From positions 10 through 64,009 of the forward strand of contig JAAYYI010000033.1 in assembly GCA_012515445.1 (NCBI GenBank): a DNA stretch of 64,000 nt. Direction: 5' to 3'. The position numbers and the translations under genes are program-made. Each line of letters starts with the position of its first letter. Positions within the stretch are counted from its first letter, which is position 1. Source of the DNA: Candidatus Bathyarchaeota archaeon (GTDB lineage Archaea > Thermoproteota > Bathyarchaeia > Bathyarchaeales > Bathycorpusculaceae). Shown piece after piece: positions 3,476 to 39,384 of the stretch. A model generated the notes under the pieces. The model was not told where the DNA came from and did no database searches. It saw only the letters and a program-made list of their open reading frames with translations.

Positions 3476-4234
3476 ACGAACACAATCCAAGTATTACCCG
3501 TCACAGGCTTACCACTAATACATCCCGGCGACCAATTAGGCAAGATGATCGCGGAAGCAGCAGAAAAGCAGGGTACCCCAATACAGCCGCACGACGTCAT
3601 CGTAGCCACCCACGTCGCTGTCTCAAAATCTGAAGGCAACATAGTAAACCTCGACGCCGTCAAGCCGTCCGAGAGAGCTATCGAGATCGCTAAGCAAACA
3701 AACAAAGACCCCGCAATGGTGGAAGTTATCCTGCAGGACACCAAAGAAATCGTCCGCATAGGCCAAAACAGCATCATAACCGAAACCAAAAGCGGCGTCG
3801 TCTGCGCCAACTCTGGGGTAGACCGCTCAAACGTGGCGGGCGACCGAAACGTGGTACCTCTGCCAAAAGACCCTAACGCTTCAGCGGCTAGAATCCGGCG
3901 GGAAATAGTTGAGCAATCCGGCGTTGAGGATGTGGCTGTTATCGTGTCTGATACCCATGGGCGTCCGTTTAGGATGGGGGAAATCAACATAGCAGTCGGC
4001 TACGCTGGCTTCAAACCTATCAGGGACAGGCGTGGAGAGAAAGACCTGTTCGGATATGTGCTGCGCATAAAGATGACTGCGGTTGCAGACGAGTTAGCTT
4101 CAGCGGCTGAGCTTGTAATAGGTCAAGCAAATGAAGGAATCCCCGTGGCTATCGTGCGAGGCTACAACTATACATCAAGCGAAGAACAAACCACACAGCT
4201 TATCCGAGCTAAGGAAAAAGACCTGTTCAGGTAG
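3476..4234 (+). CDS. cofE: Coenzyme F420:L-glutamate ligase CofE (start proposed at ACG 3476; first ATG is 3545)
   Basis: Motifs GVVCANSGVDRSNV, PLPKDPNASA and DTHGRPFR are present. The conserved N-terminus IQVLPVTGLPLIHPGDQL is encoded upstream of the first ATG, in a stretch with no ATG/GTG/TTG. GGAG at 3464-3467 lies 8 nt before ACG 3476. Product confidence is high; the start is uncertain. Confidence 0.85.
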   Translation, partial: TNTIQVLPVTGLPLIHPGDQLGKMIAEAAEKQGTPIQPHDVIVATHVAVSKSEGNIVNLDAVKPSERAIEIAKQTNKDPAMVEVILQDTKEIVRIGQNSIITETKSGVVCANSGVDRSNVAGDRNVVPLPKDPNASAARIRREIVEQSGVEDVAVIVSDTHGRPFRMGEINIAVGYAGFKPIRDRRGEKDLFGYVLRIKMTAVADELASAAELVIGQANEGIPVAIVRGYNYTSSEEQTTQLIRAKEKDLFR

Positions 4235-4276
4235 ATTCAAAAAGCCCAGCCGAGTAGAAAGATTAGAGTTGAAAGG

Positions 4277-4606
4277 ATGCAAGCACAAACACCCCAAGAA
4301 TTCTTTAGCACAATTTTACCTCAACGGTTCAAACCAGCGAAAGCAGCCGGCATAAACGTCGTCGCTCAAGTAAACATTTCTGGACCCGAAGGGGGCAGTT
4401 GGACAGTTACAATCAAAGATCAAAAGATGACTGTAACCGAAGGCGTGGACCCTAACGCTGAGTTAACGCTAAAAATGAACCCGGCCGATTTTCTGGATAT
4501 GGTAAACGAGAAGTTGAGTGCAGAGAAAGCCTTCTTTACCGGAAAAATCCAGTTTAAAGGCAATATCGCAGTCGCCCTGAAGCTTAAAGACGCTGGCTTT
4601 TTATAA
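4277..4606 (+). CDS. SCP2 (sterol carrier protein 2-like) domain protein
   Basis: 109-aa ORF. The C-terminal pattern ADFLDMVNEKLSAEKAFFTGKIQFKGNIAVALKL is typical of the SCP2 fold. Confidence 0.7.
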   Translation: MQAQTPQEFFSTILPQRFKPAKAAGINVVAQVNISGPEGGSWTVTIKDQKMTVTEGVDPNAELTLKMNPADFLDMVNEKLSAEKAFFTGKIQFKGNIAVALKLKDAGFL

Positions 4607-5146: not shown

Positions 5147-5752
5147 TTGGGTACCTTAGAACGGTTCATTGACATAGAGGCAATTAATAAGGGTTGAATA
5201 TACTTCGGTGATTGCTTCATGTATAACTCCTCAGTTGGACGCCTCTGGAAACGTTGACCTCCCAAATCTTTTTTTACGCTGTTCTGCGAGGTACAATCTG
5301 ACAAATATTGCCTGTGACGTAAATCTGTTCCCTGTTAAGCGACGCATCAGGTCACTTTTGTAGTGCTGAATTAAAAAGCGGCTTAGTTATAGATTGAGGA
5401 GCCCCCAAACATAGGGGACACGAAATTAAGCTTTATTGCGCTTTTAGGGCTATGAACAGCCGCCTTTACAATTGTTGCATCGCTAATTTTAAATATAACC
5501 TATCAAATACGCCTTCCTATTACTCTGGTGTCCTATGGGTGCTGGTTGTCTCAAGCATCGGCCAAACTGATGATTTCCATAAGCTGAGGTACTTAGCGAC
5601 TTCTAAATACTTTATAAAACGAAACTTGTCTGACCAAGTAATTTTTTTTCAGGGACATTTATTTTTTATCGCAAAAACCTTCACCCCTCTTAGCGCCGAT
5701 TCTCAATCTGCAATGATGAATAACCTACAGAACCCTAACTAAGGAATAACTC

Positions 5753-6871
5753 ATGGAAAAGAACGAAAACTCTGAAAGCAATGAAGAACTAAAAAATCAT
5801 GGACCGTTCTCCCTTCTAGATGGAGCAACCTCTCGTGTACCTACTATTACTCCAGAGCTCTCCTTTGCAAGCAGAATAGCTCGCGACCGCACAAAACCGC
5901 TCGAGGAAAGACTCGAAAACTTTGAGATTATCCTCGACTCCGAAGTAGGCGATACAAGCCTTACTCGTGCACGCAACATTGAACGAGAGATCGGTCTACG
6001 CCAGATTTACCTTAAATTTGAGGGCGGCAACCCAACAGGTACCCAAAAAGACCGCATCGCTTTCTCCCAAGCACTAGATGCTTTGCGACGTGGCTACAGC
6101 GAAATCACCGTTGCTTCATGCGGCAACTATGGCGCAGCCATCGCCTTGGCATCTTATCTTGCAGGTTTGCACTGTTTGATTTACGTTCCAGAAGGTTATC
6201 ATGCGAACCGTATTAAAGAAATCAAGTCCCTAGGCGCCGAATTAATCAAGGTTCCAGGTGACTACGAGGAAGCCGTGATTGTTTCACGTCAGAAAGCAGA
6301 AGAAAACGGTTACTATGACGCAAACGCCGGCGGCAGCAACACTAACTTACAATTCAAAGCCTACGGCGAAATCGCGTACGAAATCTACGATGAGCTCCGC
6401 GACGCCCCTGCAGCCGTAGCTGTACCAGCATCCAACGGCTCCACATTAGCCGGCATCTATCGTGGCTTCATCAGCCTCTATAACAGAGGAAAAACCTCCC
6501 GCATGCCTCGTCTCATCGCAGGCTCATCGTATGGCATGAACCCCATTGTCAACGCCTTCGTTAAGAACATGCCTAACTGCTGCGATTTAGATCCTGATAA
6601 AATTCACAACACAACAGTTAACGAGCCACTGATTAACTGGCGCTCCATCGACGGCGACTACGCCTTAACTGCCATCCGCCAAAGCCACGGCTGGGCAGCA
6701 TACGCCACCGACAAAAGTATGGTGGATTATGCTCGCCTCATCCGCGACAAAGAAGGCCTCAATGTGCTGCCCGCCTCCACCGCAGGCTTAATAGCGTTGC
6801 TAGATAGGCACAAAAAAGAAGCGTACCCAAGCGACCGCTATGTCGTCATATTAACAGGACGTAAAGCGTGA
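5753..6871 (+). CDS. PLP-dependent fold-type II enzyme, threonine synthase-like
   Basis: 372-aa ORF. LKFEGGNPTGTQKDR carries the PLP-lysine motif, a variant of NPTGSFKDR. SCGNYG and a Gly-rich phosphate loop region are also present. Confidence 0.75.
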   Translation: MEKNENSESNEELKNHGPFSLLDGATSRVPTITPELSFASRIARDRTKPLEERLENFEIILDSEVGDTSLTRARNIEREIGLRQIYLKFEGGNPTGTQKDRIAFSQALDALRRGYSEITVASCGNYGAAIALASYLAGLHCLIYVPEGYHANRIKEIKSLGAELIKVPGDYEEAVIVSRQKAEENGYYDANAGGSNTNLQFKAYGEIAYEIYDELRDAPAAVAVPASNGSTLAGIYRGFISLYNRGKTSRMPRLIAGSSYGMNPIVNAFVKNMPNCCDLDPDKIHNTTVNEPLINWRSIDGDYALTAIRQSHGWAAYATDKSMVDYARLIRDKEGLNVLPASTAGLIALLDRHKKEAYPSDRYVVILTGRKA

Positions 6872-6878
6872 CCCAAAC

Positions 6879-7934
6879 ATGGTACAGAAAGCAATAGTGT
6901 ACTGTGACCGAGAATACCTAAACGCAAACGGAAAAACAGCCCACGGACTAGTCCGTTACACCACACGCTACCAAATTGCGGGTGTAGTAGACTCTACTGT
7001 GCCAGCTTCAGGCGATGCTGGAGAAATTCTGGATGGAAAAGCAAGAAGCATCCCCCTATTCCACAACTTGGAGGAGGCCTGTGAAAAAACCAAGCCGGAC
7101 ACTTTTATCATCGGCGCAGTCTCAGAGGGCGGCGTTTTGCCAGCAGGCTATGACAAAGCTGTTGATTACGCGCTGGAGCATCATCTTAACGTCGTGTCGG
7201 GGCTGCATCAATTCATCTCCGACGACCCCCGCTTCGCCTCGGCTGCCAAGAGAAACGGCTGCCAAATCACCGACGTTCGCAAACTCTTCCGCGATCACAA
7301 ACGCTTCTACACCGGTGAAATAAGCAAAGTAGGCGCAACACGAATCGCCGTGCTGGGTACAGATTCCGCAATCGGCAAACGCACCACCGCAGTGCTGCTG
7401 GTTAACGAGTTGCGCAGGCGCGGCAGAAAAGCAGACATGATATTCACTGGTCAAACCGGCTGGATGCAGGGCTGGCCGCATGGCGCCATAATTGATGCTA
7501 TGATAAATGACTTTGTTTCGGGTGGTATAGAGGGTGCAATCATCGATTCTTGGCGTGACGAAGCTCCAGAGTTTGTTTTAATCGAAGGACAAGGCAGCCT
7601 GTTGCACCCGTTTTTCCCCGGCGGTTTTGAGATTATGGCAGCTGGGCAAATCCACGGCTTCACTATGCAGGACGCGCCTGGTAGACCGTGCCTCGATGGG
7701 TTCCCCGGCTACCCAATGCCTGACACACGCCGCGTAGTAAAACTGGCTAATCTTCTTTGCGGCAAGCCGCTAGTGGGCATCAGCATCAATCACGAGAACA
7801 TGACGCCACAGCAGGTTCAAACTGCCAAAGCCGACATGCACAAGAAATTCCATGTGCCCATTGAGGATCCAGTGTTTGATGGCGTAGTTAAGCTGACTGA
7901 TGCAATTGAGAAGCTACGTGACGGTGAAGCTTAA
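6879..7934 (+). CDS. DUF1611-family protein (DgcN-like P-loop/Rossmann protein)
   Basis: 351-aa ORF. The N-terminus has GKTAHGLVRY. The P-loop-like GTDSAIGKRTTAVLL and EGQGSLLHP are typical of DUF1611. It starts 8 nt after the upstream stop. Confidence 0.75.
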   Translation: MVQKAIVYCDREYLNANGKTAHGLVRYTTRYQIAGVVDSTVPASGDAGEILDGKARSIPLFHNLEEACEKTKPDTFIIGAVSEGGVLPAGYDKAVDYALEHHLNVVSGLHQFISDDPRFASAAKRNGCQITDVRKLFRDHKRFYTGEISKVGATRIAVLGTDSAIGKRTTAVLLVNELRRRGRKADMIFTGQTGWMQGWPHGAIIDAMINDFVSGGIEGAIIDSWRDEAPEFVLIEGQGSLLHPFFPGGFEIMAAGQIHGFTMQDAPGRPCLDGFPGYPMPDTRRVVKLANLLCGKPLVGISINHENMTPQQVQTAKADMHKKFHVPIEDPVFDGVVKLTDAIEKLRDGEA

Positions 7935-9371
7935 ACGAACCTTCTGTGCCTACAAAGCATAGAACTCTCCGAGCCCCAAATCCAAGGCAACGCCGTCCAC
8001 ACCGAAGTAACCCTCACCGACCTTTTGGCTAAAAAGAGCAGCTTTAGCCTGCAAGCCAAATACCCCCATGCACTTTCAGAGGCCGACTTACCGCTTCTGC
8101 GACTTGCCAGCGCCATGCCCATCCTTAACTACGGCTTATTCACCGACCAAATCCGATTGAACTACCCCATCAGCCACGCTGACCGTGCACTCCTAAATGA
8201 CCTTCTTGGGCTATTTAGCCGGGACATATTCATCAACAAGCTGGTGCGTCGGAAAAACCCCTATGTGCTCCCTGAGTACCTGCCAACCGAATCTGAGGTT
8301 ACGGAGGAAAACGCCAAGCCCCGAGCTAAAATCATCTCCAAATCGGTGTTTGCTGATGTTCCAATAATCAGCGGGTTAAATGCGAATTCCTGTGGGGTGC
8401 TCTCTAGCGGCGGCAAAGAAAGCCTCCTCACTTACGGCATGCTAAAAGAAGCAGGCGCCAACGTCTACCCCCTCTACGTCAACGAGAGCGGCGGACACTG
8501 GCGAACCGCATTGGCCGCCTACCGATACCATACTAAAACTGAGCCTAACACGGTACGGGTCTGGCTGAACGTAGATCGCTTCTACAACTTCATGCTTGAT
8601 CACCTCCAAATCATACGCCCCAACCACCGCAAAGTCTGGCTCGACACCTACCCCATCCGTCTCTGTATCTTCCCCGTCTACGTATTCTACCTCCTCCCCA
8701 TCTTCGCCGCCCAAAAAATCAGCAACCTTCTAATCGGCAGCGAATTCGACGACCCCCGGCTTGCACCCATCTACCGCGGCATTAAACACTACTTCGGCGT
8801 CTATGACCAAACCCAAGACTACGATTTACGCATGGAGCAATGGTATCAAAAACGCATGCCCACAATGAGGCAATGGAGCGCAGTGCGACCCATCTCAGGC
8901 TTGATTGTGGAACGTATCCTGACCCGCCGCTACCCCAAGCTAGCCAGTGTCCAGCGAAGCTGCCACAGCTGCCGTTTAGAGGGCGGCGAGGTAGTACCAT
9001 GCGGCGACTGCAGCAAATGCCTCGGAATCCAACTGTTCCTGCAGGCTAACGGCGCTGACCCCACAGCCTTGAACTACAGCAAACGGGATGTGGAGCTTTT
9101 CGCTCAGCGTTTCAATCAGGGCAGCTTGAGACTTGACGAGGATGAACGGGAGCATGCAGCCTACTTAGCCAGCCGACATGGCGTTACAGTCACCGGCAAA
9201 GAGAACCCGCATGTCGAGTCAATCCACCTCTACAAAGCCACCGCCGATCTGCAGCTTGTTCCAAAGCAGTTCCGCGCAAAACTTATGGGCATAATCGAGC
9301 AATACACCAACGGCTACACCAAACTCGAAGACGAAAAATGGGTCATCGCCGAGGCGTCTAAAGAGTTTTAA
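7935..9371 (+). CDS. PP-loop (N-type ATP pyrophosphatase) superfamily protein with C-terminal Cys cluster (start ACG 7935 proposed; TTG 8025 alternative)
   Basis: VLSSGGKESLLTYG is a SGGxDS-type PP-loop. The C-terminus has CHSCRLEGGEVVPCGDCSKC. The frame is open from the codon directly after the DUF1611 stop. Confidence 0.6.
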   Translation, partial: TNLLCLQSIELSEPQIQGNAVHTEVTLTDLLAKKSSFSLQAKYPHALSEADLPLLRLASAMPILNYGLFTDQIRLNYPISHADRALLNDLLGLFSRDIFINKLVRRKNPYVLPEYLPTESEVTEENAKPRAKIISKSVFADVPIISGLNANSCGVLSSGGKESLLTYGMLKEAGANVYPLYVNESGGHWRTALAAYRYHTKTEPNTVRVWLNVDRFYNFMLDHLQIIRPNHRKVWLDTYPIRLCIFPVYVFYLLPIFAAQKISNLLIGSEFDDPRLAPIYRGIKHYFGVYDQTQDYDLRMEQWYQKRMPTMRQWSAVRPISGLIVERILTRRYPKLASVQRSCHSCRLEGGEVVPCGDCSKCLGIQLFLQANGADPTALNYSKRDVELFAQRFNQGSLRLDEDEREHAAYLASRHGVTVTGKENPHVESIHLYKATADLQLVPKQFRAKLMGIIEQYTNGYTKLEDEKWVIAEASKEF

Positions 9372-9825
9372 CCATTTGAACGGCGTCGCGTGAGCCATGG
9401 TGCTCAAAGCGGTAATACCCCGCCAGCTGCTTTTTGGGCTTGTAACCGGCTTTCTGGTAGAGTGCGATGGCGGTTTTGTTGCCCTCGGAGACCTCAAGCT
9501 GAGAGAAGTTTAGCCCTCGCCGTCTCATTTCCTCTTCGGCAGCAAAGAGCAGCCGCAGCCCGATGCCTTGACCCTGATAAGCTGGGTCAACATCCAGCGT
9601 TTCAAGGTAACCGCCCCGAGTGCCCTTGCGGTAGAGCGCCACAATAAAGCCCCTGATGACTTCTGCGCATGTTTCGACGAGGCAGGTGCTGTTGGCTTTG
9701 TAGATGAGGTAGGCAAGCTGGCTTTTGGGGTAGGCGGTGGCTCCAGTGAAACAGCGGTTTTCGATTGCGACAATGGCTTCAATGTCGCTGGGTTCTGCAT
9801 TGCGAATTACTGCTGCTTCAGCCAT
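9358..9825 (-). CDS. GNAT acetyltransferase, RimI-like
   Basis: 155-aa ORF with IRNAEPSDIEAIVAIE, YQGQGIGLRLL and NKTAIALYQKAGY. Size and motifs match N-terminal acetyltransferases of the RimI type. Confidence 0.8.
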   Translation of the reverse strand: MAEAAVIRNAEPSDIEAIVAIENRCFTGATAYPKSQLAYLIYKANSTCLVETCAEVIRGFIVALYRKGTRGGYLETLDVDPAYQGQGIGLRLLFAAEEEMRRRGLNFSQLEVSEGNKTAIALYQKAGYKPKKQLAGYYRFEHHGSRDAVQMVKTL

Positions 9826-9959
9826 GTATGGTCAACTGGATAGAACATCGAGGCTTCTTTGGGAAAAACATTTCGATGCTATACAATCAGGCAACTTCTC
9901 TTTTTTCGACACCTATTTATCTTCTTATTTGTTTAACCTCTCCATCAGAGTTGAGACAT

Positions 9960-10925
9960 ATGCCCAAAGAATCAAATGAAGCGCATAAAATCGCAGTTAA
10001 AGATTACCAGTTCACAGAAAACATGACTGTAGACGAGCTTGTCAAGCAGATGGAGTTAGCTTGGGGTTTCACGGCGGGCAAGCTGGCTACAGGCGTCAAC
10101 ATAATGGAAGCCATGATCGACGACAAGAAATGCGTCAAAATCCTCTCGTTCACCGCCGACATCATCGCTACAGGCACAAGAGGTGTCATCCGCGAACTAG
10201 TCAAGCGCAAACTAGTCGATGTTATAATAACCACCTGCGGCACACTCGACCATGATGTCGCCCGCGTTACCCGCGATTATTACAAGGGTAGCTTCATGAT
10301 GAGCGACAGCAAACTGCACCATGAAGGCGTCAACCGACTCGGCAACGTCCTTGTACCAAACGACAGCTATGGTACAGTTATCGAAAAGAAAATCCTCGGT
10401 TTACTTGAAGAACTCTATAAAGAAGGCAAAAAAGAACTATCCACAATGGAGCTGAACCGCGAAATCGGCTTAAGATGCGTCGACGAAACCTCAATTGCAT
10501 ATTGGGCAGCTAAAAACGATATCCCAATCATCGTGCCCGGACCCACAGATGGCTCAGTAGGCTACCAACTCTGGTACTTCAGTCAAGACCACAAAGACTT
10601 CCGCATAAACATCCTGAAAGACGAGGAATACCTAAACAACCTCATCTTCGACGCCAAAAAAACCGGCGCCCTCATCGTCGGCGGCGGCATCAGCAAGCAC
10701 CACACGATCTGGTGGAACCAGTTCAAAGACGGACTCGACTATGTCGTCTACATATCGACGGCGGACGAGTGGGATGGCAGCTTAAGCGGCGCTCGGCCAC
10801 GTGAAGCAGTATCGTGGGGCAAGATTAACGAGAAGGCAAAGATGACGATGATCGAAGGCGACGCCACCATGGTGTTGCCGGTAATCACAGCGGCCTTGAT
10901 TGATCGCTTAAGTAAAAAGAAGTAA
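9960..10925 (+). CDS. dys: Deoxyhypusine synthase
   Basis: 321 aa from ATG 9960. Motifs are TADIIATGTRG, ITTCGTLDHD, GGGISKHH and DGSLSGARPREAVSWGKI, the last carrying the catalytic Lys. Confidence 0.85.
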   Translation: MPKESNEAHKIAVKDYQFTENMTVDELVKQMELAWGFTAGKLATGVNIMEAMIDDKKCVKILSFTADIIATGTRGVIRELVKRKLVDVIITTCGTLDHDVARVTRDYYKGSFMMSDSKLHHEGVNRLGNVLVPNDSYGTVIEKKILGLLEELYKEGKKELSTMELNREIGLRCVDETSIAYWAAKNDIPIIVPGPTDGSVGYQLWYFSQDHKDFRINILKDEEYLNNLIFDAKKTGALIVGGGISKHHTIWWNQFKDGLDYVVYISTADEWDGSLSGARPREAVSWGKINEKAKMTMIEGDATMVLPVITAALIDRLSKKK

Positions 10926-10986: not shown

Positions 10987-12066
10987 TTATGCCTTTGGCA
11001 TATCTTTGAAGATCCAACTCATGTCTGGACCCTTGCGTTTCTCAGTTACGCGCTCAGAGAGTGCGTGGCATATGAGTGGCAGCGCGATTGTTGCGTCACA
11101 GTAGCAGACTGCGCGTGTACCGGTTTGGCTGTTGATTTTGCCCCAGCTGATAGCTTCCTCAAGTGTGCATCCGGATAGTCCGCCCCATTGTGGGCTGTCG
11201 GTGGTGATTTGGATGGCGTATTTGTGGGGGTAGTAGTATTCCTGTATGCTTTTGCGTAAGCCGCCTTTTCTGCCTTTGACACCTTGGTCTTCGGTCATTG
11301 GTGAAACGGAGATGGCGATGAGCTGGGTTAGGTCTTTTGGTACGCCGCCGCCGATGTAGACGACGCCGACTTCTTTGGTTTTTGTGCCGATCTGGACGAA
11401 CTGGTCGAATTCTTTAACGCTGTCGACGTGGACGTTGTGCCCTTTGTTCTTTGCCAAGAGGAAGGTTTCGCCGTAGGCGCTGTCAACCATTGCTGGACTG
11501 AAGATTGGGACGCCGTTAGCTGCCGCAACTGCGGTGATGGCTGGAACCTTTTTCTTGCCGAGGAATTTGCCTAGGCCATGGAGAAATTCTGCGGATGTAT
11601 ACATGTAGTCTTGGTTGCAGGTCATGACGTAGTCTGTAACTAGGTCTTCCATTTCGCGGTAGTCTGTTTCTTTGCCATAGACATCGTAGTATCTGTTGAC
11701 GTCGTCGTTTAGGAGCTGTGCGTCGTCAACCATGTGGCTGCCTTGGTAGTAGCCTAGGCCCATTGCGTCAACGATGTCCTCAGATACGTTTGCGCCTGTG
11801 GAGATCAAGACGTCGATGAAGCGGTTCTCGATAAGCCAGTTGATGATTGTCCATTGGCCCGCTGTGCTCATGGAGCCTGCGAATCCGAGGGCGATGACTG
11901 TGTCTTTTTCTCTAATCATGTTTTCCCAGACATCGACGGCTTCGCCTAGTTTGCGGCCTTGGTAGGCGGTTTTACTCATTTCTTTTAGTAACTGTGAAAT
12001 GGGTTTTTGCTTAGTAACCTTGATGGGTTCTAGCTTCTTACTAAAATAGTCGTTACCTTTTGTCAT
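10987..12066 (-). CDS. Deoxyhypusine synthase-family paralogue
   Basis: 359 aa from ATG 12066. Motifs are GFAGSMSTAG, LISTGANVSED, GGGVPKD and GGLSGCTLEEAISWGKI; the SWGK Lys is retained. Confidence 0.75.
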   Translation of the reverse strand: MTKGNDYFSKKLEPIKVTKQKPISQLLKEMSKTAYQGRKLGEAVDVWENMIREKDTVIALGFAGSMSTAGQWTIINWLIENRFIDVLISTGANVSEDIVDAMGLGYYQGSHMVDDAQLLNDDVNRYYDVYGKETDYREMEDLVTDYVMTCNQDYMYTSAEFLHGLGKFLGKKKVPAITAVAAANGVPIFSPAMVDSAYGETFLLAKNKGHNVHVDSVKEFDQFVQIGTKTKEVGVVYIGGGVPKDLTQLIAISVSPMTEDQGVKGRKGGLRKSIQEYYYPHKYAIQITTDSPQWGGLSGCTLEEAISWGKINSQTGTRAVCYCDATIALPLICHALSERVTEKRKGPDMSWIFKDMPKA

Positions 12067-12279
12067 GTTAATTGGACACCTGTGTCGTTGTAAATAATAG
12101 GCTTGTATTAAAAATTTATTATTTAAAAAAGAGGCAAACAATAGTCTGTTGAACTAAAAAAAGGGCATTATTTTGAGATAGATAAATTCGGAGCCTGTTT
12201 CGCAGCCAAATAAAGGTGGGAAGCTTGACTTACCAGCCTGTTCGGCGCTGATGATGCTGTTTTTAAGTGTCAGACGCTG

Positions 12280-21825: not shown

Positions 21826-21844
21826 GGAACGGAGGAGAAAAACT

Positions 21845-22387: not shown

Positions 22388-22388
22388 A

Positions 22389-23795: not shown

Positions 23796-23810
23796 GCCCG
23801 GTGACCTAAA

Positions 23811-25025
23811 ACGTCCAACGACAAGAAAAACAATGACGCGCTCAAGCTAAGTGACGATCTCTTAGCAGCGCTCGCAAAGTTCAAGACGATCGAGTTGGAA
23901 GACTTCCAACTTGACGCCAAAGAACTAGAAATACTCTTCGAGCCAGGACAAGCAGTAAACGTATTACCGAAACTCAAACTACCATTAGGCGTCGGCGCAG
24001 GCAAACCAACAAGCTTACTAGCACAGAACTTCCTGCCACCAGTCGAGAAATACCCAAACAAGATCGCCACAGTCAAACTAGGCGCAACACGAAGCGAAGG
24101 CGGCACACGCGGCAGAACAGTCACACTCGGCGGAGAAACCTCTCCAGCCTTCTACTCCTTTGAGAACCCAACACCACACAAACCAATCGTAACCTTAGAC
24201 GTCTTCGACATGGAAGTCCCACTGTCCAAGGCCGTCAAGATGCACGTTAAAGACGTCGTCGGCGACCCAGCAGCATGGGCGAAGCTTGCAGTCGAAAAGT
24301 TCGGCGCAGACATGGTTACAATGCACCTCATCAGCGTAGACCCACTACTCAAAGACGCATCACCGAAAGAAGCATGCAAAACAGTCGAGAAAGTCCTGCA
24401 GGCAGTCGATGTACCACTCGTAATCGGCGGATGCGGTGACCCAGTAAAAGACACAGCCCTCTTTGAAGAGGTATGCGCTCAGTTCCCAGGCGAACGCTTC
24501 CTAATCAGCTCAGTTACACGCGACATGGATGGCGAAAAATGCGCTAAATTCATCAAGAAAGCAGGCAACGCAGTACTTGCCTTCACACCAATGGACCTTA
24601 ACTTTGCACGCGAATTAAACAGGCGTCTCTTTGATCACCTATCACGCGAAGACATCGTTATGGACTTAACAACCGCAGCCCTCGGCTATGGACTTGACTA
24701 CGCATTCACCAACATGGAACGTGCACGCATCGGCGGCTTAATGGGCGACATGGAACTCGCTCAACCAATGAGCAGCGGCACAACCAACGCTTGGGCAGCC
24801 CGTGAAGCATGGCTAAAGATGTCAGCGGACTTTGAACCACGCGAACTCAGAGGTCCACTATGGGAAGTCACCACAGCGCTCACACTGCTTACTGCAGGTG
24901 TCGACGTATTCATGATGATGCACCCAGCAGCCGTTAAAACCCTCAAAGACGTCACTAACTACTTAACTGCAAACAAGAAAGCCGACCCAACCAAGTTCCT
25001 TGAGTGGGTTAAGGTGAAAGCTTAA
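23811..25025 (+). CDS. cdhD: ACDS delta subunit (corrinoid FeS protein small subunit); start proposed at ACG 23811, TTG 23895 alternative
   Basis: TIM-barrel CdhD/AcsD-like sequence (TLGGETSPAFYSFE, VTMHLIS, VPLVIGGCGD). The frame is open from 23805, with GGTGA at 23800-23804. Confidence 0.9.
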   Translation, partial: TSNDKKNNDALKLSDDLLAALAKFKTIELEDFQLDAKELEILFEPGQAVNVLPKLKLPLGVGAGKPTSLLAQNFLPPVEKYPNKIATVKLGATRSEGGTRGRTVTLGGETSPAFYSFENPTPHKPIVTLDVFDMEVPLSKAVKMHVKDVVGDPAAWAKLAVEKFGADMVTMHLISVDPLLKDASPKEACKTVEKVLQAVDVPLVIGGCGDPVKDTALFEEVCAQFPGERFLISSVTRDMDGEKCAKFIKKAGNAVLAFTPMDLNFARELNRRLFDHLSREDIVMDLTTAALGYGLDYAFTNMERARIGGLMGDMELAQPMSSGTTNAWAAREAWLKMSADFEPRELRGPLWEVTTALTLLTAGVDVFMMMHPAAVKTLKDVTNYLTANKKADPTKFLEWVKVKA

Positions 25026-27982: not shown

Positions 27983-28363
27983 TTGGATCACACCATAATA
28001 CACTTCGATATCCCAGCAAACGATATTGAAAAAATGAAAAAATTCTACACTGAACTTTTCGGCTGGAAAATAGAAAAACTTGGCAACATGGAATACTACG
28101 GAGTAACAACCGTGCCCATGGATGAGAAGGGCAACCTGCTCAGACCGGGCGTAAACGGCGGCCTCTATAAAAAAGAGCAACCGCAGCAGCAGTCTGTGAA
28201 CTACATCTACGTGGAATCCGCTGACGAGTACAGCAAGAAAATCGTGGCTTTAGGCGGCAAAATAGTTGTTTCGAAGACAGAGGTTCCAGGCATGGGCTGG
28301 TTCGCATTAGCGCAAGACCCAGAGGGCAACACTTTTGGCATCTTTGAAACAATGCCGATGTAA
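27983..28363 (+). CDS. VOC-family (glyoxalase/bleomycin resistance-like) protein
   Basis: 126-aa ORF starting at TTG, directly after an in-frame TAG. Motifs are IIHFDIPANDIEKMKKFYTELFGW and DPEGNTFGIFE. Confidence 0.75.
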   Translation: MDHTIIHFDIPANDIEKMKKFYTELFGWKIEKLGNMEYYGVTTVPMDEKGNLLRPGVNGGLYKKEQPQQQSVNYIYVESADEYSKKIVALGGKIVVSKTEVPGMGWFALAQDPEGNTFGIFETMPM

Positions 28364-28440
28364 AATCTGTTTAAGCGGCTGCTGCTGATTTATTTAAGCG
28401 GATGGGCCACGGCGGAGCAAGAAGCCATACAGTGTGCCTT

Positions 28441-28496
28441 CTCCCCTAATTTTGTCCTTTAAATAAGGGGGGGTTTAGAAAAATCGCAGTTGACCT
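28441..28496. repeat. Mosaic repeat, copy G
   Basis: CCTTTAAATAAGGGGGGGTTTAGAAAAATCGCAGTTGACCT aligns with 63287-63329 (CCTTTAAATAAGAGGGGGGTCTAGTCGGAAATCGCAGTTAAGG). Confidence 0.7.
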
Positions 28497-28744
28497 CAAC
28501 TCATATGCTGCATAATCGAATTGCTTGTAGAATCGCCCACAACCAGTTCACAATGTGACTAAAGCGGAGTGCAAAACAGATGTTTCTGCTAGACCTGTAT
28601 CGTAGTAGAAGCAGTAGGGCTGTGTTTCCTTTTTTCTTCGAATTCGAAAATCAAAAAGCGATTTCCATATTCCTACCCTCGGCAATTAAACGTAATTGTT
28701 AAAGCCCAGAAAACAACACATTAACCAAGCAAGGCGAAAAACAG

Positions 28745-29827
28745 ATGCCGAAAAACTACACTTACACAGATGCAGGCGTCAACAGAGCACAACGCCACGA
28801 ATCCAAAAAGCAACTATCAAGCTTAAAAGAAACCTACCGCCACATAGGCTTCGGCGGCATCATGCATCTGCCATACAGCAATCTCTTCCCAACTGCGCAG
28901 GACACGTTTCTGGATCTTCAAATCGAAGGTGTCGGCACCAAAGTCCTAATCGCTGAATTAGCAGACAAATATGACACAATCGGCGTAGACGCAGTCGCCA
29001 TGGTTGTAAACGACATAATCCGATCTGGCGCAAAACCACTCGCCTTAGCAGACAATATACACGCCGTAGCCAGCGAACCTAAACTCGTACAGGCATGGCT
29101 CAAAGGCATAATCGAGGGCGCAGAGCAATCCGAGTGCCCAGTCGTCAACGGAGAAACAGGCGACGTAGCAGAAATCATACGCGGCATCAAACCAGACAGC
29201 GGCTTTGACATGGTTGCCTCATGCATCGGCAGCGTCGAACGCAAAGACATCATAACCGGCACAGGCATCAAACCCGGTGACTCCATCATCGGACTCGCCA
29301 GTAGCGGTGTCCACAGCAACGGCATTACCCTCGTACGCAAAATTCTCTTCAAGCAATGGGGTGGAAAATACGACGCATCCGACATTCCAGAAGGCTTAGA
29401 GCGCGAAGTGGTACTTGAAGCGTTGGAGCCCACTAAAATTTACGTTAAACCGCTCCTCACTTTAGCCCGCGAAGTCAAAGTCAAAGGCGCCGTGCACATC
29501 ACAGGCGATAGCTACACAAAATTCAACAACCTCGTCAACTACTCGGCGGGAATAGGCTTCTGCTTTGACAATTTCAAGCCGCAACCCATATTCGGAGTAA
29601 TACAGCGCACAGCCTCAGAACTCGGCTACACCATAACTGACGAGGAAATGTTTCGGACGTTTAACATGGGCTGGGGTTTTGGCATAATCGTTGACAAAAC
29701 AGAAATCGACAAAGCAATGAACACACTTGAGCAGGCAGGATACGCGGCTGAACGCATAGGCAAAGTCACCGACAGAGAGCGCACAGTGGAAATAGAGCAC
29801 AAAGGCAAACACATGATTTTAACGTAA
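28745..29827 (+). CDS. purM: Phosphoribosylformylglycinamidine cyclo-ligase (AIR synthetase)
   Basis: 360-aa ORF with YTDAGVN, GVGTK, DAVAMVVNDI and GLASSGVHSNG motifs. Confidence 0.95.
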   Translation: MPKNYTYTDAGVNRAQRHESKKQLSSLKETYRHIGFGGIMHLPYSNLFPTAQDTFLDLQIEGVGTKVLIAELADKYDTIGVDAVAMVVNDIIRSGAKPLALADNIHAVASEPKLVQAWLKGIIEGAEQSECPVVNGETGDVAEIIRGIKPDSGFDMVASCIGSVERKDIITGTGIKPGDSIIGLASSGVHSNGITLVRKILFKQWGGKYDASDIPEGLEREVVLEALEPTKIYVKPLLTLAREVKVKGAVHITGDSYTKFNNLVNYSAGIGFCFDNFKPQPIFGVIQRTASELGYTITDEEMFRTFNMGWGFGIIVDKTEIDKAMNTLEQAGYAAERIGKVTDRERTVEIEHKGKHMILT

Positions 29828-29885
29828 GCTTTTGCACTGTTTCTTACGAAAGTGTTTAAATTCAGATTGCTTAGTTTAAAGAACT

Positions 29886-30137
29886 ATGAAATACGCTGCC
29901 AAAATCGAAGTAGGCCTCAAACCCGGACACAGTAACCCGGAAGGCGAAACCACCGCACGTTCACTAGTTGAATTAGGCTTCAGCGTCGAGGCAGTAGACG
30001 TTAGCAAAGTCTACACTATTATCCTCGAAGCAGCATCAGCCAAAGAAGCCAAAGCTAAGGCGGAGGAAATGAGCAAACGACTGCTCGCTAACCCGACAAA
30101 GGATAACTACACTATCAGTGTCGTTGAGCAGAAATGA
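29886..30137 (+). CDS. purS: FGAM synthase subunit PurS
   Basis: 83-aa ORF with the pattern KPGHSNPEGETTARSL.....V. Its stop overlaps the purL start (ATGA). Confidence 0.85.
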   Translation: MKYAAKIEVGLKPGHSNPEGETTARSLVELGFSVEAVDVSKVYTIILEAASAKEAKAKAEEMSKRLLANPTKDNYTISVVEQK

Positions 30138-32518
30138 ACGCCGACTTAATCGTGCAACGAGAAAACAGCCAAGTACTCGAATTTAAAATAGCTAAAGCCA
30201 CAAAGGCGCAGCTTCAGGAAATCAACAGCGAACTCGCATTGGGCTTCAGCGCAGAGGAACTATCCATAATACAGGCTTACTTTATCAAGGAAAAACGTAA
30301 CCCAACTGACATTGAGCTCCAAACCATAAGCCAGTCATGGAGCGAGCACTGCTGCCACAAAACCTTCAAAGGCAAAATCCAGCTTAACGGCAAAGAGATC
30401 AGCAGCCTATTCAAAACCTACCTCGCCAAAGCCACCAAAGAAATAAACGCACCCTGGTGCTTCAGCGTTTTCGAGGACAACGCGGGCATAGTTAAATTCG
30501 ACAAGGGCTACGGCATCGCGGCGAAGGTGGAAACTCACAATCACCCATCAGCAGTTGAACCGTTCGGCGGCGCGGCAACCGGCGTCGGTGGAGTCATCCG
30601 AGACATCCTAGGCGTCTGGGCAGATCCAATAGCATGCACCGACGTCTTGGGCTTTGGGCCGCTGGATTATGATTACAACAAGTTACCCAACGGTGTCAAG
30701 CACCCCAAATACATCTACAGAGGCGTCACCGCCGGCATCAGCGCCTACGGAAACAACATGGGCATCCCAACCGTTAACGGTGCAATATACTTCGACGACA
30801 GCTACACGGGTAATGTCGTAGTGTACTGCGGCTGCATCGGGCTACTGCCACTAAACAAGTATGTGCGCAGCGGCAAAGTAGGCGACTACGTTGTCTTGTC
30901 AGGCGGCAAAACAGGAAGAGACGGCATCCACGGCGTAACGTTCGCCTCAGCCGAACTCACAGAGAAATCTGAGGAAATCAGCCGCCCAGCAGTGCAGATC
31001 GCTGACCCCATCGAGGAGGAAAAAGTCAAGCGCGCAGTGGTTGGAATCCGAGACGCCGGTTTAGGTAGCGGAATAACAGATATTGGGGGAGGCGGTTTGT
31101 CTTCGGCAGTCGGCGAAACGGCAGAGCGCTTTGGATCCGGAGTAGCAGTGGATCTGGAAAAAGTTCACCTTAAACATGAAGGCCTCTCGCCATGGGAAAT
31201 TTACTTATCTGAATCGCAGGAACGCATGCTTATGACTATTCCTCCTGAGAATCTGGAGCAGGTTATGGCAATCTTTGAGAAGGAAGATGTTCACGCGGTA
31301 GCCATAGGCAGACTAATTCCGGAGCGGCGATTGAGGTTGAGCTACAAGGGCGAATTAGTCTCAGACATCGACATGGCGTTCCTTTTCAGCACATGCGAAA
31401 TCACTAAAACTGCAACCCTCGAACAGGCTAAATTGATAGAGCCAGACTTCCCAGAACCACAAAACCTTACCCAAACCCTGCTTGACTTGCTTGCGGCTCC
31501 AAACATTGCGAGCAAAGAAGCAGTCATACGCACCTACGACCACGAAGTCAAAGGCAACACCCTACTCAAGCCGTTGCAGGGCGACTACGCAGGACCAAAC
31601 GACGCAGCAGTCCTAAAACCCGTCGACGTCTCAAATAAAGGCCTAGTTATCAGCTGCGGCATGAACCCCAACTACGGCAAAATCGACGCTTACTGGATGG
31701 CGGCTTCAGCAATCGACGAAGCCATACGCAACAACCTCGCCGTCGGCGGCAGAAGAATCGCAATTCTTGACAATTTTACGTGGGGCAACCCTGAGAAGAG
31801 CGAGCGGCTCGGCAGCTTGGTGCGTGCCTGCGAAGCATGCTACGATGTAGCCACCAATTTCCGCACACCTTTCATTTCGGGCAAGGACAGTTTATACAAC
31901 GAATCGCCGCTTGGCCCAGTCACGCCTACTCTGCTCATCACAGCAATCGGCATCATACCAGACATAAACAAAACTGTTTCAGTCGACCTGAAAGCGGCAG
32001 GCAACCTAATCTACATAGTTGGCGACACTTACTCTGAACTCGGCGGCAGCGAATACTACAAACTCAAAGGCTTTCTCGGCGCTTCAGTGCCTAAACTGAA
32101 TGCCTCTAAAGCCCGAAAATCCTACTACAACCTAACCAAAGCCATGGGCGAGGGCATAGTGAAGTCCTGCCATGACCTTTCAGAGGGCGGCTTGGCGGTT
32201 GCGGCGGCGGAGATGGCGTTTGCAAGCGGGCTAGGATTGGAACTTGATCTCCAAAAAGTCCCTGCCAAAAACGTCAGCCGAGATGATTTCATGCTGTTCT
32301 CGGAGTCTAACAGCCGATTCTTAATAGAAGTCGCTCCAGAAGACCAGAAACTTTTCGAAGAGCTGATGGGCAAATACAGCAAGCCAATCGGTAAAGTAAC
32401 CAAGGAACAGAAGCTGATCATCAAAGGCTTAAGCGGCAAAGCTGTAATCGATGCATCGATTGACAAGCTTAGGTATAGCTGGAAGAAAACCCTCAACCCC
32501 AAGGAGGACATACAATGA
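30134..32518 (+). CDS. purL: FGAM synthase II (large subunit)
   Basis: 794-aa ORF with SWSEHCCHKTF, VETHNHPSAVEPFGGAATGVGG and GKDSLYNE motifs. Confidence 0.95.
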   Translation: MNADLIVQRENSQVLEFKIAKATKAQLQEINSELALGFSAEELSIIQAYFIKEKRNPTDIELQTISQSWSEHCCHKTFKGKIQLNGKEISSLFKTYLAKATKEINAPWCFSVFEDNAGIVKFDKGYGIAAKVETHNHPSAVEPFGGAATGVGGVIRDILGVWADPIACTDVLGFGPLDYDYNKLPNGVKHPKYIYRGVTAGISAYGNNMGIPTVNGAIYFDDSYTGNVVVYCGCIGLLPLNKYVRSGKVGDYVVLSGGKTGRDGIHGVTFASAELTEKSEEISRPAVQIADPIEEEKVKRAVVGIRDAGLGSGITDIGGGGLSSAVGETAERFGSGVAVDLEKVHLKHEGLSPWEIYLSESQERMLMTIPPENLEQVMAIFEKEDVHAVAIGRLIPERRLRLSYKGELVSDIDMAFLFSTCEITKTATLEQAKLIEPDFPEPQNLTQTLLDLLAAPNIASKEAVIRTYDHEVKGNTLLKPLQGDYAGPNDAAVLKPVDVSNKGLVISCGMNPNYGKIDAYWMAASAIDEAIRNNLAVGGRRIAILDNFTWGNPEKSERLGSLVRACEACYDVATNFRTPFISGKDSLYNESPLGPVTPTLLITAIGIIPDINKTVSVDLKAAGNLIYIVGDTYSELGGSEYYKLKGFLGASVPKLNASKARKSYYNLTKAMGEGIVKSCHDLSEGGLAVAAAEMAFASGLGLELDLQKVPAKNVSRDDFMLFSESNSRFLIEVAPEDQKLFEELMGKYSKPIGKVTKEQKLIIKGLSGKAVIDASIDKLRYSWKKTLNPKEDIQ

Positions 32519-33336: not shown

Positions 33337-33365
33337 ACCTTCTTTCTAACGTGTGATTTTTTTTC

Positions 33366-33474: not shown

Positions 33475-33536
33475 AGACACCGCTTAAGCTACTCCACAGA
33501 AAGTAGATCAGTCAGCCAAAAAGTGGCATAAAAAAA

Positions 33537-35356: not shown

Positions 35357-35357
35357 A

Positions 35358-36437: not shown

Positions 36438-37849
36438 GCCTTCCTCAGCTGCTCCATCTTCTTGATGCTTTTTGCGATGTGATCTTTGGCTGCGACGTCG
36501 GTGCGGTTCCAGAGTGCTCCGCCGGTGATGGCTTTGGCGCCTTCTTGGCTGATGGTGCGGGCTTCCTCTATGTCTTTGCCGATTCCGAGGATACCGATAA
36601 CACGGGATTTCAATGCGTAATTCTTGCCGTCTCTTAGCTCCATTGATCCGGGGTAGATGCGGATTTTATCGCCGTACTTCTTGCTGAGTGCTTCTGCTTT
36701 GGAGAGGTCAACTGGGCCGCCGACTGCTGCTCTGTCCAGCTTGCCTGCGTGGACTTTGCTGTATCCGCCATAATCAGGCGGCACTTTGTAGGTTAAAACT
36801 GTGGCTGACTTGTGCATTTCGACGCTTGTTAGGTTGCCGTCAATCATTCTTAGGCATACGTCTGCGAAGTCGTCTTTGATTACTGGGAGAAGGTTCATGA
36901 TTTCCGGGTCGCCGGGTCGGCTGTTAATCTCCAAAATTTTGATGCCTTTGCCTGTATGCATAAACGCGAGGTATAGTGGGACTCCGCGCAATGCGGTGTC
37001 ATCGGGGATTTTTTTGCGCCAGCCCTTGAAGACCTTCTCTGCTAATGCAAGTTCGGCTTCTCGGTCGGCTGCTGTAAGGAAGGGTAAGTAATCTTTGGCG
37101 TCTTTGTAGGAGCCCATGCCGCCGGTGTTTGGTCCGCGGTCGTCGTCGAATGCGCGTTTGTAGTCGCGAGTGTCGGGGGGCGGGATGAAGTGTTTACCGT
37201 CGCAGAACCCCATGCAGCTTGATTCTTCGCCGGGCACTTTTTCCTCGAGGATAACTGCGCCGTATTTGAAGTTGGATAAGAAGTGTTCCCAGAGTTGCTC
37301 TCGGGTGGTGAAGTGGTCGCCCCAGACGCCCACGCCTTTTCCCAGCGCGGGTTTATCGGGTTTAACTGCCACTTGGTTATCGAGCTCATCTAGCCACCTG
37401 TAAACTGCAGATTTAGCTTCAGCTTCAGACTTGTACTGGGCTGGGTCGAAAACTTTGAATCTTGGATTAGCCTCGGGTGCGATTTCCTCGAAAAGTAGGC
37501 GCTGGGCTACTTTGCTCTCTTCAATTGCATAGGCTTTTTTGGGGCAGATGACTGGTATGCCGACTTTGGCTTCGATCAAGTCTCGGATGCCCTTAATGAT
37601 GGGGTTCTCGGATCCTACAAGCACGAAGTCGAGATCGGTTTTATTGGCTTCGGCGAAGCGGCAGATTTCGTTAACGTCTAAGCTTGGAATAACCGCGTGT
37701 TTTGCGGCATGTTTGGCGTTGTAGGGGTTGCATTGCTTGTCAGCGACGTAGAGTTGCACGTTGTGGTTTTTGCTTCTAAGAAGAGTGTCAGCCATAGCGA
37801 CTTCTCGTGCGCCGTAAGAAACCAGTAGTACTCCCAGTTTATCCATCAA
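36434..37849 (-). CDS. purD: Phosphoribosylamine--glycine ligase (GAR synthetase), long archaeal form
   Basis: 471-aa ORF with ATP-grasp layout and PurD-like motifs (GPNTGGMGSY, EINSRPGDPE). It sits between purF and the HAD-like gene, with a 4-nt overlap. Confidence 0.85.
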   Translation of the reverse strand: MMDKLGVLLVSYGAREVAMADTLLRSKNHNVQLYVADKQCNPYNAKHAAKHAVIPSLDVNEICRFAEANKTDLDFVLVGSENPIIKGIRDLIEAKVGIPVICPKKAYAIEESKVAQRLLFEEIAPEANPRFKVFDPAQYKSEAEAKSAVYRWLDELDNQVAVKPDKPALGKGVGVWGDHFTTREQLWEHFLSNFKYGAVILEEKVPGEESSCMGFCDGKHFIPPPDTRDYKRAFDDDRGPNTGGMGSYKDAKDYLPFLTAADREAELALAEKVFKGWRKKIPDDTALRGVPLYLAFMHTGKGIKILEINSRPGDPEIMNLLPVIKDDFADVCLRMIDGNLTSVEMHKSATVLTYKVPPDYGGYSKVHAGKLDRAAVGGPVDLSKAEALSKKYGDKIRIYPGSMELRDGKNYALKSRVIGILGIGKDIEEARTISQEGAKAITGGALWNRTDVAAKDHIAKSIKKMEQLRKA

Positions 37850-37902
37850 AGATTCACCGAATTATTAGCTGCTGTATTTTGCGTTATGTAGCTTAATAGC
37901 GG

Positions 37903-39384
37903 TTACGGCTGAATCTCTTCGTTCTCGTAGATTCTGCCTTTCTCCTCATATCCTTGCTGGAAGCGCCGCTTCATTGCGTCAGCGATTTTCTGTGCACAGG
38001 GTGTCGGGTACTTGCCGGTTATGCAGGCCAAGCAGAGTTCATCCGTTTTTTTGCCTGTAGCCTCTACTAGAGCTTCGATTGACTGGTAGCAGACACCGTC
38101 GGCACCGATGATTTTTGCGATTTCCTCTGCGTTGTGGCGTGAACCGACGAGTTGGCCGTAGCTGGACATGTCGATGCCGTAGAAGCATGGGCCGATGATA
38201 CGTGGGAAAGTCACGAACACGTAAACTTTCTTCGCGCCTGCCTGACGCATCTTTTCGATGATTACTTTGGTTGTGTCTCCGCGGACGATACTGTCCTCGG
38301 TTATGATGACGCTTTTACCTGCGACTTTGGAGCCTAAAATGTTGATTTTTTTGTCGATGGTTGAGTAGCGTTCAGCGTTTAGCAGGATAAACGCGCGTTC
38401 AGTTACATAGCGGTGGCGCCTTGAGCAGCGTTCCCAGCGGAGTCCTGAAGCTTCATGCACGCCCATCGCGGAGTCGTCGCCTGTTTCGGGAACCGACATG
38501 ATTATGTCGCATTCCTTAACGACGTCTTGGTACTCTTTCACTGTGTTGCGCCCGAATTGCTCACGTATTTCATAGACGTATTTGCCGTTGAAAATAGAGT
38601 CGGGACGTGCAAAATATGCGAATTCAAACGCGCAGAAAGCGTGTTTGGGGTTTTCGATTACTTGGATTCGTTTAAAGCCGTCTTTGGTTGCGATAGCGAG
38701 TTCGCCGGGGTTTAACTCGAAATCCCGTACAAAGCTGTTCATGTCCAAGCTGACGGTTTCAGAGGAAAACGCTAAAGTTTTAGTGTTGGGGTCATGTCCG
38801 GCACACAGCGGTTTAATGCCGTGCGGGTCTTTGAAGGCAAAGAATTCTCCGTTTCCGGTTATGCCTGTGACGCTGAATGCTCCGTCGAGGCTTTCCATGA
38901 CTCCTTTTGCCGCGGCCACTATGTCTTTGCTCTGCTTGTAGCCAAGCAGGAACTTGTGACAAACGAGGTCTGAGTCGCAGTTGTAAATGAAATCCTTAAA
39001 GTTGTCTTCCATCTCTTTTTTGAGTGGCTGAGTGTTAACGATGTTGCCGTTGAATGATAGTGCTACGGTTACTCCGCCCATTGAGGCGGTAAAAGGCTGG
39101 GTTCCTTGAACGATGGATACGTCGTCGCATTTTCCTGATGTAGTGTAGCGGACGTTTCCGATGCCGACTGAGCCTGGGAGCCTAGCGAACCATTCGTTGA
39201 TTGCGTTGCCCTTGACTTTCGGTACTAGGTCCAGGTTCTTGTATGAGAAGAATTGTCCATTATGGAATGTGAGGAAGCCATGTGATTGGTGGCCTCGGTG
39301 ATTCTGAGCTCTTAGTCCCCAGTAAACATAGGGGAAAACTGGTTGATTTTCGAAGTTTATTGCTCCAAATATGCCGCAGCCCGT
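37903..39384 (-). CDS. purF: Amidophosphoribosyltransferase (start proposed at ACG, plus-strand 39382-39384; first ATG is 39081)
   Basis: Upstream of the first ATG the open frame encodes GCGIFGA (the Ntn Cys nucleophile), LRAQNHRGHQSHGF and GIGNVRYTTSG. The PRTase motif VIITEDSIVRGDT lies downstream. Confidence 0.9.
   Translation of the reverse strand, partial: TGCGIFGAINFENQPVFPYVYWGLRAQNHRGHQSHGFLTFHNGQFFSYKNLDLVPKVKGNAINEWFARLPGSVGIGNVRYTTSGKCDDVSIVQGTQPFTASMGGVTVALSFNGNIVNTQPLKKEMEDNFKDFIYNCDSDLVCHKFLLGYKQSKDIVAAAKGVMESLDGAFSVTGITGNGEFFAFKDPHGIKPLCAGHDPNTKTLAFSSETVSLDMNSFVRDFELNPGELAIATKDGFKRIQVIENPKHAFCAFEFAYFARPDSIFNGKYVYEIREQFGRNTVKEYQDVVKECDIIMSVPETGDDSAMGVHEASGLRWERCSRRHRYVTERAFILLNAERYSTIDKKINILGSKVAGKSVIITEDSIVRGDTTKVIIEKMRQAGAKKVYVFVTFPRIIGPCFYGIDMSSYGQLVGSRHNAEEIAKIIGADGVCYQSIEALVEATGKKTDELCLACITGKYPTPCAQKIADAMKRRFQQGYEEKGRIYENEEIQP

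Follow-up and report, generated by a model that had tools for sequence, protein, structure and literature searches.

Where does a gene begin when its reading frame is open upstream of the first ATG, GTG or TTG and that upstream stretch encodes residues which the protein requires? The question is raised by a stretch of 64,000 nucleotides (nt) from a Candidatus Bathyarchaeota archaeon (contig JAAYYI010000033.1), which is referred to in its entirety as the window. A sequence-only reading of the window had proposed ACG as the start codon of four unrelated genes: cofE (coenzyme F420-0:L-glutamate ligase), purF (amidophosphoribosyltransferase), cdhD (acetyl-CoA decarbonylase/synthase delta subunit) and a gene at position 7935 that encodes a PP-loop protein (gene 7935). 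We compared the window with a set of 88 related Bathyarchaeia loci (L001-L088), and the comparison makes it very probable that ACG is the start codon of cofE, purF and cdhD, and also of a fifth gene that encodes a GCS2-family ligase in related loci. The broader statement, that the four ACGs of the window are genuine starts, that they represent a trait of the Bathyarchaeia lineage and that they are read by the ordinary initiator tRNA, is one which we favor on balance, mechanism included. In the literature searched, no account of ACG serving as a start codon was found for archaea or Bathyarchaeia.

Reading frames open upstream of the first canonical start

For each stop-to-stop open reading frame (ORF) of the window we recorded how far the first canonical start (ATG, GTG or TTG) lies from the preceding stop, and the four named genes stood out. 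The ACGs were found where the earlier reading had placed them (3476, 7935, 23811 and, on the minus strand, 39384-39382), at codons 5, 1, 3 and 17 after an in-frame stop. This stop is TAA 3461-3463 for cofE (stop-to-stop ORF 3464-4234), TAA 7932-7934 for gene 7935, TGA 23802-23804 for cdhD and TAA 39435-39433 for purF. The further claim that no ATG, GTG or TTG is available in place of these ACGs also held, as the first canonical starts are ATG 3545 at codon 28 of the cofE ORF, TTG 8025 at codon 31 of gene 7935, TTG 23895 at codon 31 of cdhD and codon 118 of the purF ORF. A Shine-Dalgarno (SD)-like element was present 6-8 nt before each ACG, again as described and at normal spacing, with a weaker element at purF (Table 1).

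That the upstream stretches of cofE and purF hold required residues was borne out by the family models. Position 1 of TIGR01916 already aligned at codon 8 of the cofE ORF, while the catalytic cysteine of purF, which is ORF codon 19, corresponded to position 1 of TIGR01134, with model positions 1-432 aligned from this cysteine. For cdhD, position 4 of TIGR00381 aligned at codon 19.

Start columns of cofE, purF and cdhD

A CofE search of GTDB genomes yielded 80 Bathyarchaeia loci, in which the codon aligned with ACG 3476 was GTG in 44, ATG in 25, TTG in five, ATT in one and ACG in five. The relatives with ACG are exactly the five closest ones (L001, L002, L003, L020 and L035; 78-95% identity) and come from different metagenome-assembled genome (MAG) projects. 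L001 (contig CAYPGY010000009.1) is the nearest locus overall, with a CofE 95% identical to that of the window. The motif upstream of the start column was AGGAGA in L001, L003, L020 and L035 and GGGAGA in L002, and mostly just GAGG in the orthologues with GTG or ATG. When read from ACG the predicted N-terminus of CofE is (M)NTIQVLPVTGLPLIHPGDQLGK. The single ATT, found in L077, was rejected as a start; it is preceded by ATG.

Many PurF orthologues have a length of 493 amino acids (aa) and the N-terminus MGCGIFG (e.g. P0001, P0005, P0007 and P0008), and their ATG aligns with the ACG of the window. The closest relatives are annotated as shorter proteins of 421-474 aa, and their DNA reads ACG-GGC-TGC. 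This reading was obtained for L081 (an ENA contig of 3.3 Mb), L082 (JGI), L083 and L084 (two SRA runs as assembled by Logan) and L085, and L088 reads TAA-ATG-GGC-TGC. In L082 a TAG lies two codons 5' of the ACG, leaving just AAC, ACG or GGC before the catalytic cysteine. The element GAAGG(G)A is kept 5' of the start in L081-L088, irrespective of whether ACG, ATA or ATG stands there, and the start codon itself switches among relatives, being ATG in an orthologue of 90% identity and ACG in one of 84% identity. Over the 101 codons between ACG and the first ATG, the ratios of synonymous to non-synonymous differences from relatives were 23:7, 24:6 and 46:7; as the differences are mainly synonymous, this stretch is evidently translated.

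Two further purF loci, L086 and L087, have ATA in the start column behind GAAGGGA, roughly nine codons inside the gene called at 10001, together with an in-frame ATG ten codons upstream. Given this ATG the case is ambiguous, and ATA was not upheld as an obligate start.

The GGTGA motif upstream of cdhD is common to all orthologous loci, to those with TTG and those with ACG alike, and the start codon follows 5-7 nt downstream of it. TTG was found in the start column of eight loci (L088, L040, L076, L019, L029, L015, L071 and L072) and ACG in ten (the window, L081, L085, L003, L013, L041, L031, L017, L007 and L012). Seven of the ACG loci have a GTG within the SD motif that is in frame. In the other three (the window, L081 and L085) the motif supplies an in-frame TGA instead, so that the upstream GTG is not the cdhD start there. 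The predicted N-terminus of CdhD read from ACG is (M)SNDKK...

Alignment of orthologues had been put forward by the sequence-only reading as a check, and for cofE, purF and cdhD it placed ACG in close relatives of the window and ATG, GTG or TTG in the same column elsewhere. The distribution of these codons indicates several evolutionary switches in which ACG either replaced ATG, GTG or TTG or gave way to one of them, and the pattern of differences indicates that the stretches between ACG and the canonical start are under purifying selection.

A GCS2-family ligase as a fifth gene

The same reading had suggested that ACG should be enriched at SD-spaced positions. A tally was made of in-frame codons 5' of the first canonical start, with an SD motif required 3-10 nt before the codon. 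In the window clade such a motif preceded 9 of the 38 in-frame ACGs located upstream of the first canonical start (24%), compared with 2.2% for all codons there.

This tally exposed a fifth ACG gene, which encodes a GCS2-family (glutamate-cysteine-ligase-like) ligase of approximately 400 aa (PF04107) and is located 1-2 kb upstream of cofE. The gene is absent from the window and is present in, for example, L009 (minus-strand ORF 7858-9046), L013 and L036. The first codon of the conserved N-terminus xYKPLEVLGPEHEF was ACG in 53 of 56 loci and ATG in three; ACA, ACC and ACT were not observed. For 42 loci, neither the upstream part of the ORF nor the next four codons contain a canonical start. Other conserved threonine columns of the same alignment mix the four threonine codons (e.g. 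ACT 22, ACG 18, ACC 10 and ACA 5). Because ACG is invariant among the threonine-type codons of the first column (53/53) while the other threonine columns vary, the G in third position is under selection, with ATG as the sole alternative tolerated, and the comparison indicates that the ACG-or-ATG pattern is the signature of a start codon and not of a threonine codon.

Public annotations of the ligase are scattered around this position. Among 120 cluster representatives, 80 start internally, at a Met or Val shortly before GPEHE, 20 start upstream and read Thr at the ACG position, and six begin M(Y/F)K. Nearly all full-length members of ten clusters (90% identity, more than 200 contigs) are the truncated form of 388/389 aa. 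Read from ACG, the predicted N-terminus of the ligase is (M)YKPLEVLGPEHEF. The gene keeps ACG though ATG is only one mutation away, which suggests regulatory use of a weak or unusual start, and the ACG itself may be selected to set the level of expression.

Gene 7935

The proposal that ACG starts four unrelated genes was supported by the orthologue start columns of cofE, purF and cdhD and is weaker for gene 7935, where the codon is an internal Thr in several orthologues. Unlike those of cofE, purF, cdhD and the GCS2 ligase gene, the ACG of gene 7935 does not align with the start codon of its orthologues, which begin four codons upstream. Its ACG directly follows the stop of an upstream gene in the same frame, and the conserved N-terminal motif of the PP-loop protein, TN(L/I)xC..SIE..P(Q/E)I, begins at this ACG; the protein had no Pfam or NCBIfam match. 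The TAA-ACG junction is identical in L001, and in L054, where a canonical start is lacking, stop and ACG overlap as TAACG, the ACG counterpart of the classic TAATG. The ATG of other orthologues overlaps the end of the upstream gene, as ATGGGTGA or ATGGTTAA. The counterpart of this ATG in the window is gACGgt at 7921-7923, which is out of frame through a length change of 2 nt, and the change at 7921-7923 is from GAT to GAC and is silent in the upstream gene. We think that the conserved N-terminus of the PP-loop protein probably starts at ACG 7935, no other start being plausible, and gene 7935 is the weakest of the four cases.

The PP-loop gene is the last of an apparent three-gene operon (5753-9371), together with genes for a threonine-synthase-like pyridoxal phosphate enzyme and a DUF1611/DgcN-like protein, which was found in few related loci.

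Codon statistics and specificity

ACG accounts for 0.76% of codons and is the rarest threonine codon, its share of threonine codons being 9.8% within the window and 15% over all loci, and the ACGs at the start positions exceed what chance would give. Wherever a comparison with close relatives was possible, the remaining genes of the window retain conserved canonical starts, and the ACG genes amount to about 4 of 58. When the start columns of 28 well-sampled families and of 41 window genes were inspected against close relatives, no other non-canonical codon was upheld as an obligate start, and the comparison indicates that the feature is specific to ACG and not a general loosening of start-codon choice.

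Several candidates were rejected in the course of this inspection. The ACGs in the family of gene 4235-4606 are second codons that follow GTG or TTG, and TTA, CTG, ATC, ATA, GCG, TCG and similar codons had canonical starts adjacent to them. Two automated start-codon censuses were too noisy, as in-frame 5' leaders align and internal Met, Val and Leu columns interfere.

Other features of the window

The window has approximately 48% G+C, a high coding density and one tRNA gene, and a scan with Rfam found nothing in it except this tRNA-Gly. Its proteins have their matches in uncultured Bathyarchaeia, and an exact search of public assemblies for its MetK protein gave no record. It carries cofE, the cdhA-E operon, purF, purD, purM, purL, purQ, formylmethanofuran transferase, metK, argS and two deoxyhypusine synthases. 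The coding strand is poor in T across the window (A 0.30, C 0.27, G 0.23, T 0.20), third codon positions contain 39% C and 16% T, and this T-poverty peaks at 20001-24000 and 28001-32000, with an AT skew of up to +0.31 over the cdh operon.

A variable island (39679-44346) adjoins purF. The identical gene set was found beside purF in L082, and other genes, including toxin-antitoxin pairs, in L081, L083 and L088. The two deoxyhypusine synthase paralogues adjoin on opposite strands (9765-10925, plus; 10987-12141, minus), one being of the PRK01221 type and the other of the PRK00805 type, and both are kept in related loci. A small ORF at 5452-5742 without a family match may not be a real gene: L001, the relative with 95% identity, has AAT in place of its ATG.

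Table 1. Coordinates of the predicted ACG starts, their SD-like elements and coding sequences, and of genes in the variable island beside purF.
Feature	Position	Strand	Remark
SD-like AGGAG, cofE	3463-3467	+	8 nt before ACG
Predicted ACG start, cofE	3476-3478	+	orthologue start column
cofE coding sequence from ACG	3476-4234	+	TIGR01916 and PF01996 match full length
SD motif GGTGA, gene 7935	7923-7927	+	within 3' end of upstream DUF1611 gene; 7 nt before ACG
Probable ACG start, gene 7935	7935-7937	+	directly follows TAA 7932-7934
Gene 7935 (PP-loop protein) coding sequence from ACG	7935-9371	+	translation; SGGKES motif
SD motif GGTGA, cdhD	23800-23804	+	contains in-frame TGA stop; 6 nt before ACG
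Predicted ACG start, cdhD	23811-23813	+	orthologue TTG column
cdhD coding sequence from ACG	23811-25025	+	TIGR00381 positions 4-389 = ORF residues 19-402
Weak SD-like GAAGGGA, purF	39392-39398	-	7 nt before ACG
Predicted ACG start, purF	39382-39384	-	catalytic Cys 2 codons downstream
purF coding sequence from ACG, 493 codons	37903-39384	-	length equals ATG-initiated orthologues
TIR-domain protein, CAP12/Pycsar effector type	39679-40512		variable island
tRNA-Gly(CCC)	40539-40614		variable island
458-aa protein without assigned function			variable island
Hcp-like protein	42193-42852		variable island
Zinc phospholipase C	43438-44346		variable island

Are the ACGs real starts?

The most mundane explanation, and one which the sequence-only reading had raised itself, is a systematic T-to-C sequencing or assembly error, or a polymorphism, at a true ATG. 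Beyond the fact that ACG is one T-to-C step from ATG nothing favors it, and the same C was found in NCBI MAGs of several projects, in the 3.3-Mb ENA contig, in a JGI metagenome and in two SRA runs assembled by Logan. More than 200 contigs repeat the truncated GCS2 call, which points to a start codon other than ATG, and the cofE orthologues mainly have GTG, from which ACG differs at two positions. The chance that error accounts for the data is negligible in our view. Initiation might instead take place at the first downstream ATG, GTG or TTG, with the proteins truncated at the N-terminus or the genes decaying and the upstream frame incidental. Gene callers do annotate these genes from downstream starts, but such a start would cost PurF its catalytic N-terminal cysteine and approximately 100 residues, and CofE the model positions 1-20. 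Synonymous change far exceeds non-synonymous change in the upstream codons, and ACG is conserved across lineages including its third base, and we regard this explanation as very improbable. For gene 7935 only, one can also think of read-through of TAA 7932-7934 into a fusion with the DUF1611 protein, or of termination followed by a reinitiation that needs no real start codon. Both ORFs share one frame and are separated by nothing but the TAA, a layout also present in L001, and the PP-loop orthologues are tightly coupled in translation, as seen from their overlaps with the upstream gene and from the TAACG of L054. Such a fusion is not conserved, however, since the two genes are in different frames in other genomes, and GGTGA stands before ACG 7935 as it would at a normal coupled start; we hold this to be unlikely. 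Owing to the shared start columns, the presence of C in independent assemblies and the purifying selection, the artefact is refuted and the reading of ACG as a start codon is supported.

How might ACG be read?

In the mechanism that we propose, the SD element would position the ribosome and place ACG in the P site, where the ordinary initiator Met-tRNA (anticodon CAU) would pair with it and tolerate the C.A mismatch in the middle, and the protein would begin with Met. We infer, with somewhat more confidence than doubt, that direct near-cognate reading of this kind is the decoding mechanism. The ACG starts would probably arise by T-to-C change, as the sense strand strongly favors C over T and this bias would supply ATG-to-ACG mutations, and they would persist because they are adequate in function.

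Several points weigh against such a reading. ACG is a very poor start codon in tested bacteria. Initiation at ACG in yeast reaches only approximately 0.5% of that at AUG (PMC4705826). General relaxation of stringency would predict the use of CTG, ATA, ATT and ATC, which were never upheld as obligate starts. CdhD is a stoichiometric subunit of a major complex, so ACG would have to be a reasonably efficient start, and this hints at a dedicated adaptation. In L035, L004, L005 and L008 the PP-loop gene starts four codons earlier, at an ATG, and their ACG is an internal Thr codon.

With ACG the only such codon seen and with its use for the stoichiometric cdhD, two other modes of decoding stay alive. 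One is site-specific C-to-U editing of the mRNA, by which ACG would become AUG before translation, as at the starts of ndhD and psbL in plant organelles. It would fit with a genomic ACG where orthologues have ATG, and ACG is both the sole non-canonical codon seen and the only triplet from which one C-to-U change makes AUG. On the other hand, none of GCG, TCG and CTG, the codons that editing could convert to GUG or UUG, was seen as a start, even though the cofE and cdhD orthologues mostly have GTG or TTG, and no ATG-type variant was present in more than 70 members of the ten GCS2 clusters (more than 200 contigs, which may all derive from DNA). We know of no mRNA editing system in archaea, and editing is not required to explain the data; we consider it unlikely, if not to the same degree as error or truncation. 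The other is an initiator tRNA, dedicated or modified, with full pairing to ACG; this could be an additional initiator whose anticodon is CGU or one with a modified base at position 35. Both the restriction to ACG and its presence on a stoichiometric subunit, which suggests efficient decoding, would suit such a tRNA. A scan of JGI metagenomes for an initiator-type anticodon arm with CGT gave 65 contigs (L089-L153) and no intact archaeal initiator, the scan being an exact match that would miss genes with introns. Hallmarks of an initiator are A1:U72 and three G:C pairs in the anticodon stem. An ordinary archaeal Thr tRNA accounted for one of the hits, and a few tRNAs of bacterial type and many 3' half fragments for the others. 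In the 88 Bathyarchaeia loci neither an initiator nor a Thr(CGU) tRNA gene was found, and the tRNA scan gave Gly, Glu and Arg tRNAs and one odd call. A special initiator tRNA also seems unlikely to us. The more general idea that the Bathyarchaeia added ACG to their efficient starts through a dedicated mechanism, be it C-to-U editing or a fully pairing initiator tRNA, and use it to set enzyme dosage, is doubtful, with a small but appreciable chance of being correct.

Some of the contigs from the JGI scan deserve mention in their own right. Most of the 65 carry 3' halves of initiator-like tRNAs, with bacterial ...CGCAACCA or archaeal ...CCCGCTAC ends, which are joined to unrelated 5' sequence and may be remnants of integration sites, and L104, L105 and L110 carry full-length bacterial initiator-like tRNAs with a CGU anticodon.

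Implications

Gene finders never call ACG because it is outside the starts of translation table 11, and they truncate or wrongly extend the ACG genes: public purF calls are without the catalytic cysteine and most public calls of the GCS2 ligase start 6-7 residues too late. In thousands of Bathyarchaeia genomes, the share of mis-annotated genes may be roughly 5-7%. In eukaryotes ACG is among the better near-cognate starts. Archaea share initiation factors with eukaryotes, aIF1, aIF1A and aIF2 being homologues of the eukaryotic factors that set start stringency (PMC4705826), and a class whose essential enzymes depend on ACG as their only start would be a natural system in which to study both the setting and the evolution of this stringency. 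Should editing or a new initiator tRNA prove true, it would be a new kind of biology and a first for archaea.

Comparison with known systems

The alternative starts of table 11 are GUG and UUG and, rarely, CUG, AUU, AUC and AUA, of which the conserved AUU of bacterial infC is an example. The ACG starts proposed here resemble them in being positioned by an SD element, in having one mismatch with the initiator tRNA and in that they can be conserved for a given gene (ACG in the GCS2 ligase, AUU in infC). They differ in that the mismatch is at codon position 2 and not at position 1 or 3. ACG itself is not part of table 11, and the rarer starts of that table were not found as obligate starts in the compared genes. 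The likeness to ACG-to-AUG editing in plant chloroplasts and mitochondria exists at the DNA level only, as a genomic ACG in the ATG column of relatives. Editing in plant organelles needs PPR/DYW-type factors, which to our knowledge have never been reported in archaea.

Experimental precedent for archaeal initiation at near-cognate codons comes from harringtonine ribosome profiling of Haloferax volcanii, in which approximately 30% of the putative alternative start sites were near-cognate (PMC7261190). Unlike the ACGs described here, those sites are alternative or internal, were set aside by the authors and were not split by codon, their conservation was not shown, and the main text of that report makes no mention of ACG (PMC7261190). 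With the near-cognate ACG starts of eukaryotes and viruses, the Bathyarchaeia codon would share its reading by initiator Met-tRNA despite a mismatch at the middle position. Such starts include those of the adeno-associated virus capsid protein VP2 and the Sendai virus C' protein. In eukaryotes they are usually weak, alternative or regulatory. In Bathyarchaeia, by contrast, ACG would be the sole start of housekeeping enzymes, led by an SD element within prokaryotic operons, and it is conserved across an archaeal class and interchanges with GTG and TTG.

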